Shown here piece after piece: positions 36,872-39,624 of a stretch of 39,624 bases of DNA. This DNA comes from a virus. Where the stretch lies: UHGV virus genome UHGV-0068444. One strand, written 5' to 3'. How positions within the stretch are numbered: position 1 is the stretch's first letter; each line of letters opens with the position of its first letter. The notes below the pieces were generated by a model that worked only from the letters and a program-made list of their open reading frames with translations, was not told the origin of the DNA and made no database searches. The position numbers and the translations under genes were made by a program.

Positions 36872-39589
36872 ATGGGTGGGAAGAACAAGAAAAAGCAGAG
36901 CACGCCGTATGAAGAGCCGGATAACCTGAAATCGGTACAGGAACTGAGCTTCATTGACGCCATCGGGGAAGGGCCGATCGAGGGACTGGTTAAGGGGATG
37001 CAAAGTATCCTTATCAACAACACCCCCCTGGTAAATGACGATGACAGCTACAACGTACACGGTGTCACAGCAATTTATAACGCCGGTGAACAGGAGCAGA
37101 CCCCGCTGGAGGGGTTTGAAGATACCGGCGTGGAGGTCATGGTCAACGCTGAGATCAAACAGGATGCCCCCATTACCCGGACCATTACCGCTCAGGAGAT
37201 TGACCGGCTGCGTATCACGTTTGGTACGCCCTATCTCCAGGAAAGTAATAACAAAGGCGATCGTCTGAATACCTCATTGCATCTCGTTCTTCAAATCCAG
37301 CGTGCTGATGGATGGGTGACGGTCAAAGATATTTATATTAACGGGAAAACCACCTCACAGTTTCTTGCCTCAGTGGTACTGGAGGAGTTACCCCCGCGCC
37401 CGTTCAATGTTCGCATGGTACGGGTGACGCCGGACAGCACCACCGATCAGTTACAGAATAAATCCACCTGGTCATCCTATACCGAAATCACTGACCTGAA
37501 GCAGGCGTACCCGAATACGGTTGTGGTGGGGCTGAAGGTGGCTGCAGAGCAGTTTGGCAATCAGCAGGTGACGATCAATTACCATATTTACGGGCGCATT
37601 GTTCAGGTTCCGTCAAATTATGACCCGAAAACGCGGACATATACCGGGATCTGGAATGGAGTCCTTAAACCGGCGTACACCAGTAACCCGGCCTGGTGTC
37701 TGCTGGATATGCTGACTCACCCCCGTTACGGTATGGGCGGGAGCATAGGCATAAGCGAGGTGGATAAATGGGCGCTGTATGCCATCGCGCAGTACTGCGA
37801 TCAGATGATCCCCGATGGTTTTGGCGGCACAGAGCCCCGTATGACGTTTAATGCTTATCTGGCCACCCAGCGAAAAGCTTACGACGTGCTGGCTGATTTC
37901 TGCTCGGTGATGCGCTGCATGCCGGTCTGGAACGGGCGGACGCTGACGTTTATTCAGGACCGCCCTGCAGATAAAGTCTGGACCTACACCAACAGCAATG
38001 TGGTCACCGACAGCCAGGGCGTGCAGTTCCGCTACAGTTACAGTGCGCGTAAGGACCGGCATAATGCGGTCGAGGTCCGGTACACCGATCCGCAGAACGG
38101 CTGGAAGACCTCCACTCTGCTGGTGGAAGATAAAGCGGCAATCCTGCGGGACGGACGGAATCTGCTGAAAATGGATGCGTTTGGCTGTACGAGCCGGGGG
38201 CAGGCGCACCGCGCCGGACTGTGGGTTATTAAAACGGAACAACTGGAAACCCAGACGGTGGAATTTTCTGTCGGGGCAGAAGGTCTGCGGCACACCCCGG
38301 GCGATATCATTGAGGTCTGCGACAATGATTATGCCGCGGTGAGTATCGGCGGGCGCATCCTCAGCGTGGATGCGATGACACGTACGCTGACCCTCGACCG
38401 GGAGGTGGAAATACCCAAAACCGGCAGTGCCACGCTGAATATCATTGGTGCGGATGGAAAACCGGTTACGGTGGATGTGACCGGGCAGCCCGCCCCGGGT
38501 CGGGTAACGGTCAGTAATATGCCAGCGGGGATTGCGGCGTACAGTGTCTGGGGGCTGAAACTGCCTTCCCTGCGCCAGCGCCTGTTCCGCTGCATACGTA
38601 TCAAAGAAAGCAGCGACGGAACGTACGCCATAACAGCCCTTCAGCATGTGCCTGAGAAAGAAGCCATTGTGGACAACGGCGCGCACTTTGATCCGCTACC
38701 GGGCACCACCAACAGTGTGGTTCCTCCGACAGTGGAACATCTGACGGTTACCACAGAAGCGGAAGGAAATCAGTACCAGGCCCGGGCGCACTGGGATACG
38801 CCGCGGGTGGTGAAGGGCGTTCGTTTCCTGGTCCGTCTGACCACGGGCAGTGGTCAGGACGATGATCCGGTTCTGCTGGTCGATTCCGCTACCACCAGTG
38901 ACACTGAGTACACGTTCCGCGCCCTGCCACTGGGGGATTACACGCTCACCGTACGGGCCATCAATGGCTTTGGCCAGCAGGGGGAGCCTGCTCAGGTGGA
39001 CTTCAGTATCCGGCCTCCGGAAGCGCCGGTGGTCATTGAACTGACGCCGGGTTACTTTCAGATAACCGTGACTCCGCACCAGACTTACTACCAACCGGAT
39101 GTGCAGTACGAATTCTGGTATTCCACGAAACAACTCAACAGCGCGGATGAGATTACGTCCAGCGCGCGGCGGCTGGGTGTTTCGTCATATATGGTCAAGG
39201 ACGGACTTAAGCCGCTTCAGGACCATTATTTTTACGTACGCAGCGTCAACCTGGTGGGGAAATCAGCGTTTGCAGAGGCGGTGGGTCAGGCCAGCCGGGA
39301 TGCGCAGGGGTATCTGTCGTTTTTTGACAAAGAGATTGGGAAAACGCATCTGGCACAGGAGTTGTTTGAGCAGATCGACAACAGTTTACTCGAGGATGAT
39401 ATTGCTGAAATCAGCAAAGTGGTGGATGACACAAAAAACGAAATAAAGCAGACCGTAAATAAGACACTGGAAGATCAAAGCGCCACGATACAGCAGATTC
39501 AGAAAGTGCAGAAGGACACGAATGATAACCTTAACGCCCTGTATATGCTGAAAATCCAGAAGACCAAAGTGTCACGAACGGTGCAATAG
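36872..39589 (+). CDS. Host-specificity / central tail fibre protein J (lambda gpJ family), apparently lacking the C-terminal region
   Basis: 905 aa; extensive collinearity with lambda J up to about the position of lambda ...NAMWAVKIEQTK, then stop 35 nt before the window end. Confidence 0.9.
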   Translation: MGGKNKKKQSTPYEEPDNLKSVQELSFIDAIGEGPIEGLVKGMQSILINNTPLVNDDDSYNVHGVTAIYNAGEQEQTPLEGFEDTGVEVMVNAEIKQDAPITRTITAQEIDRLRITFGTPYLQESNNKGDRLNTSLHLVLQIQRADGWVTVKDIYINGKTTSQFLASVVLEELPPRPFNVRMVRVTPDSTTDQLQNKSTWSSYTEITDLKQAYPNTVVVGLKVAAEQFGNQQVTINYHIYGRIVQVPSNYDPKTRTYTGIWNGVLKPAYTSNPAWCLLDMLTHPRYGMGGSIGISEVDKWALYAIAQYCDQMIPDGFGGTEPRMTFNAYLATQRKAYDVLADFCSVMRCMPVWNGRTLTFIQDRPADKVWTYTNSNVVTDSQGVQFRYSYSARKDRHNAVEVRYTDPQNGWKTSTLLVEDKAAILRDGRNLLKMDAFGCTSRGQAHRAGLWVIKTEQLETQTVEFSVGAEGLRHTPGDIIEVCDNDYAAVSIGGRILSVDAMTRTLTLDREVEIPKTGSATLNIIGADGKPVTVDVTGQPAPGRVTVSNMPAGIAAYSVWGLKLPSLRQRLFRCIRIKESSDGTYAITALQHVPEKEAIVDNGAHFDPLPGTTNSVVPPTVEHLTVTTEAEGNQYQARAHWDTPRVVKGVRFLVRLTTGSGQDDDPVLLVDSATTSDTEYTFRALPLGDYTLTVRAINGFGQQGEPAQVDFSIRPPEAPVVIELTPGYFQITVTPHQTYYQPDVQYEFWYSTKQLNSADEITSSARRLGVSSYMVKDGLKPLQDHYFYVRSVNLVGKSAFAEAVGQASRDAQGYLSFFDKEIGKTHLAQELFEQIDNSLLEDDIAEISKVVDDTKNEIKQTVNKTLEDQSATIQQIQKVQKDTNDNLNALYMLKIQKTKVSRTVQ

Positions 39590-39624
39590 TGATCCACACC
39601 CAACGCCTGAAATCAGATCCAGGG

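Follow-up and report, generated by a model that had tools for sequence, protein, structure and literature searches.

In its published structure (PMC11101478), tail tip protein gpJ of phage lambda combines hub domains with a pair of FNIII domains and an alpha-helical shaft; to these are added a beta-sheet prism, which is the central straight fibre, and, at the C-terminus, an Ig-like receptor-binding domain (RBD). This RBD attaches to LamB and sets off the opening of the tail. The lambda protein (PDB 8IYK, 8XCJ) is 1132 aa long and its gene is the last in the order M-L-K-I-J. IS100, the second system relevant here, is an IS21-family element of Yersinia pestis and E. coli, also encountered under the name IS100kyp, which carries the genes istA (for a DDE transposase) and istB (for an AAA+ helper ATPase) in a reference length of 1954 bp. 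We analysed a J-like gene that stops short of the lambda length at the edge of the window (the whole 39,624-nt stretch of viral genome UHGV-0068444). In our reading, which we hold with high confidence, a lambda-like prophage has had its J gene split by the transposition of a single IS100 copy.

The J-like ORF and its intact alleles

The last large ORF in the window (36872..39589, + strand; ORF list and translation) has a 905-aa product with the translated C-terminal end ...KIQKTKVSRTVQ, also quoted as ...LKIQKTKVSRTVQ and ...NALYMLKIQKTKVSRTVQ. Its TAG stop (39587-39589) lies 35 nt short of the window end at 39624, and directly 3' of it stands TGATCC, which opens with a second in-frame stop, TGA, at 39590-39592; the initial annotation had both the distance and the motif right. 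That annotation had also described a protein tracking lambda J over most of its length and ending roughly 230 residues early. Compared with lambda gpJ (PDB 8IYK chain J), residues 3-836 of the ORF match gpJ 2-836, and a second aligned block runs from residue 866 onward against gpJ 838 onward, reaching gpJ 871 in the 905-aa ORF; the measured difference from the 1132-aa lambda protein is 227 aa, in agreement with the description. Scanning 39000-39624 for promoters and terminators brought up nothing of relevance.

The N-terminal part of the ORF is that of a J protein, with the hub and FNIII/Ig domains (PF24801, PF13550, PF24421 and PF24489) and a gene position after M, L, K and I. At the C-terminal end PF09327 breaks off at residue 899 and there is no PF12421, so the distal receptor-binding region is missing, as had been supposed from the length; both domains are present in the gene as reconstructed below.

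An intact E. coli "phage attachment tail tip protein J" (P0001/WP_044689344.1) has 1166 aa and is 99% identical to the window ORF (890/899). The protein alignment stops at K899, leaving the residues VSRTVQ of the window ORF without a counterpart. At the DNA level, three intact loci (L047, L048 and L050) follow the window to precisely position 39569, where the alignment ends. The intact sequence at this site is ...AAGACCAAAG ATGGCGTAAC..., the window has ...AAGACCAAAG TGTCACGAAC..., and the left junction reads ...AAGACCAAAG|TGTCACG. Alignment with full-length J homologues located the breakpoint directly after 39569.

The end of the window can accordingly be divided into four features on the + strand. 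The 5' part of a lambda-J-type tip attachment gene occupies 36872..39569 (codons 1-899 and the first base of codon 900). Within it, 39565..39569 is the left copy of a 5-bp target-site duplication, CAAAG, of which the intact sequence has a single copy. The first 55 nt of IS100, its left terminal inverted repeat region, follow at 39570..39624, assigned by identity to E. coli copies. The IS-encoded tail of the chimeric ORF, V-S-R-T-V-Q and then TAG, spans 39569..39589, as seen from the translation and from the end of the alignment with the intact allele at K899.

Complete genomes gave no help in reading across the insertion, because a megablast search for the J 3' region, run against the INPHARED phage set as well as complete E. 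coli genomes, matched the IS part alone. A J-protein scan of genome contigs returned as its best hit a 61%-identical Citrobacter locus, which was of no use for the breakpoint. Fourteen public contigs, from several samples, encode a protein identical to the 905-aa product, and all those listed end shortly inside the IS. These left-junction contigs include a Logan contig and MEGAHIT contig k127_17549 of human-gut assembly ERZ918558, which extends 126 nt into IS100 with the istA start codon included; the depth reached in the IS differs among contigs.

Could the 905-aa protein instead be a genuinely shorter J design, with receptor binding left to a separate downstream protein? Lambdoid phages carry separate side tail fibres, and an stf-like gene does lie downstream here. 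Against this, close J relatives (69-99% identity) are mostly 1100-1180 aa long and have the Phage_Tail_Tip domain, the closest (99%) also having Ig_GpJ_C; moreover, the ORF terminates in IS-derived codons, and the missing codons lie in frame past the IS. A different fibre architecture, which the initial annotation had offered as one explanation, is excluded by 99%-identical alleles of 1166 aa with the Ig_GpJ_C receptor-binding domain, and we give it practically no chance of being true.

Identity of the foreign DNA

The foreign DNA begins with TGTCACGAACGG at 39570, not with TGATCC at 39590, and the last six codons of the ORF and its stop already belong to the IS. Among the 5,426 complete E. 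coli genomes, 2,690 contain the terminal 35-mer of the window, at 5,275 places in all and almost always with at least 99% identity, and the last 35 nt are matched at 100% identity in more than 3,400 E. coli replicons; chance does not account for the match. With longer queries, similarity to these repeated copies starts at window position 39569/39570, i.e. 20 nt upstream of the stop. The segment 39570-39624 is identical to known IS100 ends at 55 of 55 positions, so that the last 35 nt of the 3' flank are IS100 left-end sequence. Two further contigs from this insertion, L002 with the left 126 nt and L052 with the right 126 nt of the element, show 0 mismatches to the IS100 copy of E. coli SK1144.

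In the reference copies, the genes next to the identical termini are annotated first as "IS21-like element IS100 family transposase" (istA) and then as "IS21-like element IS100kyp family helper ATPase IstB". The reference ends are TGTCACGAACGG... and ...CCGTCGTTGACA, giving TG...CA termini with imperfect inverted repeats: the left repeat (IRL) reads TGTCACGAACGG..., the reverse complement of the right repeat (IRR) reads TGTCAACGACGG..., and an internal block, GTGATCCAC, is common to both. The istA start lies 86 nt from the IS100 left end, which is beyond the window end. Contig L002 carries the J-IS100 junction and 126 nt of IS including the istA ATG, and the portion of istA visible at this insertion is its first 41 nt (ATGGTCACTTTTGAG..., L002 12785-12824).

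Three IS100 copies elsewhere were compared. That of E. coli strain 120899 is 1954 bp long and flanked by a 5-bp duplication, CTCAC; a second copy of 1954 bp, in host DNA attached to a Yersinia Mu-like phage record, has no flanking duplication that we could see; and the SK1144 copy (L001 5981-7847) is 1867 bp, internally deleted, with the 5-bp flanking duplication CATTG. The internal deletion in SK1144 shortens istB, yet the ends of that copy are perfect and its duplication is kept. A literature search for a published IS100 target duplication length yielded no citable value, and the 5-bp length given for IS100 rests on three copies measured here. Judged by its sequence, the inserted element is IS100 of the IS21 family, with a reference length of 1954 bp and the genes istA and istB; the interior of this particular copy is presumably complete.

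The initial annotation had suggested disruption by an IS of the IS3 family starting at TGATCC, which would place the insertion right after the natural end of a shorter J. A TG start is a typical IS3-family terminus, and a stop codon does stand directly before it. However, similarity to the repeated element starts at 39570 and not at 39590, the element is annotated as IS21-like IS100 with istA and istB and has no IS3-type genes (orfA/orfB with a -1 frameshift) beside the identical termini, the target duplication is 5 bp, and the last six codons are missing from intact alleles. An IS3 insertion at 39590 is therefore extremely improbable. What survives of the suggestion is the disruption by an IS; the family is wrong, since the genes beside the identical termini are the IS21-type istA and istB, and so is the starting point, the terminus lying 20 nt upstream at 39570 and TGATCC being internal to the IS100 terminal repeat.

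Right junction, restored reading frame and contig ends

The right-junction contigs were reached via the 90% cluster of P0001, which led to a 224-aa C-terminal fragment (P0129) from comparable sources. Contigs of this fragment begin with the IS100 right end, and the right junction was found in nine contigs. One of them, k127_5333, comes from ERZ918558, the same assembly as the left-junction contig k127_17549, and two SPAdes NODE contigs also carry it; the right-hand contig ERZ1741933 NODE_185 has a length of 25.6 kb. The IS right end is present over 126 nt in L052 and 55 nt in L051. Both read ...CGTCGTTGACA, then CAAAG, then ATGGCGTAACTTATGTCGCC..., where J resumes at the second base of codon 900, and their junction can be written ...GTTGACA|CAAAG|ATGGCGTAAC. 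CAAAG thus stands on both sides of the IS and once in the intact allele, which makes it a 5-bp target-site duplication.

Beyond the window, reached through these contigs, the IS100 right end and CAAAG are followed by the rest of J: codons 900-1166 (267 codons) are in frame after the IS right end, with no base lost. When the IS and one CAAAG were excised in silico, window 36872-39569 joined to L052 132-934 gave 3501 nt, that is 1166 codons plus a terminal stop and no internal stop. Downstream of the J 3' part lie an intact stf-like gene (421 aa, phage_tail_N), a tfa-like gene (DUF4376) and further genes. Only two things tie the junctions together: both turn up in a single metagenome assembly, and their 5-bp duplications agree.

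These results bear on a further suggestion of the initial annotation, namely that the window edge marks a prophage end or a deletion, the distal part of J and all beyond it having been lost and the IS being a deletion scar or the trace of an IS-mediated rearrangement. The window stops in the IS and by itself shows nothing downstream, and large tail-region deletions do occur in relatives of the window prophage. Yet the IS100 right end leads through the same CAAAG into a complete set of J codons 900-1166, with the intact stf-like and tfa-like genes next, and one right-junction contig comes from ERZ918558, which also holds the left junction. With the missing J 3' part found directly after the IS right end and its 5-bp duplication, a boundary or deletion is excluded as an explanation of this locus; we would put its probability as very low. 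The IS right end, the matching CAAAG and the undamaged J 3' codons are together the signature of a simple transposition without loss of target DNA, and such a signature leaves no room for a prophage boundary, a deletion or a J that is short by nature.

A multi-copy repeat at a window end is a classic site of misassembly, and the J-IS100 junction might thus be a chimera, an artefact joining unrelated reads. The identical left junction, however, was found in 14 contigs, among them a MEGAHIT k127 contig, a Logan contig and the window, which reach different depths in the IS, and the right junction in nine. The complementary junctions also share a 5-bp duplication like those of other IS100 copies, which a chimera would not give. 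We consider an assembly artefact exceedingly unlikely.

The transposition of IS100 into J, as we read it, went as follows. The element inserted between codon 899 and the rest of codon 900, duplicating the 5-bp target CAAAG, with its istA oriented the same way as J. Translation of J now runs 20 nt into the IS left end, adds VSRTVQ and stops, giving the 905-aa product. As for the window end, the multi-copy IS100 halted the de Bruijn assembler at k = 55 nt into the repeat. Where such an assembler meets a repeat present in many copies, its contigs are expected to break off after k or k-1 bases of it. The IS portion is exactly 55 nt in both the window and the SPAdes-style contig L051, and 126 nt in each of the MEGAHIT k127 contigs L002 and L052. 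Because the contigs stop 55 or 126 nt into the repeat, as de Bruijn assemblers do, the window edge is an assembly break and no biological end.

Prophage context, functional consequence and comparison with known systems

By Pfam and gene calls, the window is most of a lambdoid prophage. It has an integrase with a lambda-type arm-binding domain (664-1869, - strand), a large terminase (21493-23214), a portal and HK97-type capsid, and a tape measure (30052-33024). The lambda-type tail-tip module upstream of J, from M to I, covers 33021..36802 (+; Pfam, with gene calls on L002 shifted by 26871) and comprises M (33021-33365, +), L (34745-35440, +), K (35451-36194, +) and I (36227-36802, +). Between M and L lie two morons, an Ail/Lom-type outer membrane protein (OMP) gene (33446-34012, +) and sodC for a periplasmic Cu/Zn superoxide dismutase (34127-34654, -). 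Both of these cargo genes are also found in intact E. coli relatives. L002 is nearly identical to the window, with one mismatch in 12.5 kb and one 39-nt indel over the common region. This indel, at ~27094-27132, is in frame and affects the N-terminus of a small ORF (27061-27474) just past the capsid gene.

The closest intact relative adjoins yciE/yciF/yciG-type (DUF892/KGG) and trpA-type genes in E. coli draft genomes, and we therefore propose an Escherichia-type gut enterobacterium as the probable host of the prophage. A megablast of window positions 1-673, left of the integrase (including ORF 50-667, 205 aa, no Pfam match), against the 5,426 complete E. coli genomes gave no match; for the integrase and excisionase region, the matches were of 76-89% only.

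Relatives of the window tail region that belong to the same 90% J cluster (L056, L057 and L058-L060) were compared for lesions. Among the cluster members, one protein (P0134) is J up to residue ~689 fused to an stf remnant, another (P0122) is cut at ~105 with a deletion extending to just before tfa, and in a third (P0131) the portal is fused to J; the capsid gene abuts L in L056 and L059. The independent lesions of the J-cluster members show that the family is decaying repeatedly, and in several ways, in its tail region.

In the repaired protein, Pfam places FNIII-A_GpJ at residues 88-208, Phage-tail_3 at 332-489, Ig_J at 610-716, Ig_J_second at 718-818, Phage_Tail_Tip (PF09327) at 873-1005 and the receptor-binding domain Ig_GpJ_C (PF12421) at 1043-1166. 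In lambda numbering the break after residue 899 lies at K871|D872; it falls inside PF09327, upstream of Ig_GpJ_C. Predicted to survive in the truncated J are the hub domains of the baseplate, the two FNIII/Ig domains and the alpha-helical shaft. Residues 900-1166 of 1166 would be gone, and with them the C-terminal Ig-like RBD and the greater part of the Phage_Tail_Tip beta-prism fibre. Because the beta-prism fibre and RBD would be lacking, tails, if assembled, would very probably be without receptor recognition or an ejection trigger and the prophage non-infectious, by analogy with lambda J (PMC11101478). Lysogeny functions and the morons sodC and lom are probably unaffected by the insertion.

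The RBD end of the repaired J (L052 132-934) is closer to PDB 9wca, "A8 gpJ 713" (435 bits), than to 8xcj, lambda gpJ713-LamB (322 bits). The receptor of the intact phage may, on this comparison, be other than LamB.

We also considered whether the IS100-split J could be a maintained, potentially reversible state, in which the cargo (sodC and the Ail/Lom OMP) is kept without infectious virions or in which a hub-only 905-aa J still nucleates tails, these relying on the Stf side fibres that are encoded, intact, downstream. The presence of the same allele in at least 14 contigs from several samples, the untouched duplication and 3' codons, and the independent tail lesions of relatives are compatible with such a state; no result here spoke in favour of selection or residual function of the split J, and we think the idea improbable. 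An ordinary insertional knockout of a prophage gene is what J::IS100 represents, and nothing in it departs from expectation; all its components are already known, namely IS100, a lambda-type J, the inactivation of a prophage late gene by an insertion and contig ends caused by repeats.

The practical meaning concerns database records. What is deposited as a 905-aa "tail protein", DAM44276.1, is the ORF of a J::IS100 fusion and no distinct short J class, and it is unsuitable as a full-length J in comparisons of host range or receptor binding. More generally, viral contigs from short-read metagenomes can end inside an IS in mid-prophage, and such a contig end is neither a phage end nor an att site.

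Set beside lambda, the locus has the same gene order, M-L-K-I-J, and its intact allele is collinear with lambda J over residues 3-836 and 866-1165, with the same domain set. The intact allele differs in its length of 1166 aa, with ~28 extra residues in the helical shaft, the window copy of the gene differs in being split by IS100, and the window prophage has its morons (lom-like OMP and sodC) between M and L instead of after J. With IS100 of Yersinia pestis and E. coli the inserted element shares its ends, termini, istA spacing and 5-bp duplication, and no difference was detected in the parts of this copy that were seen (the 55 nt of the window and the terminal 126 nt on either side, from L002 and L052). 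With the IS-inactivated and decaying lambdoid prophages of Enterobacteriaceae it shares the knockout of a structural late gene while the cargo, sodC and the Ail/Lom OMP, is left intact, and it adds one more such case. It differs from the decaying prophages in the nature of its lesion, which is not a deletion but a clean insertion with an intact target duplication, whose precise removal would restore the ORF.
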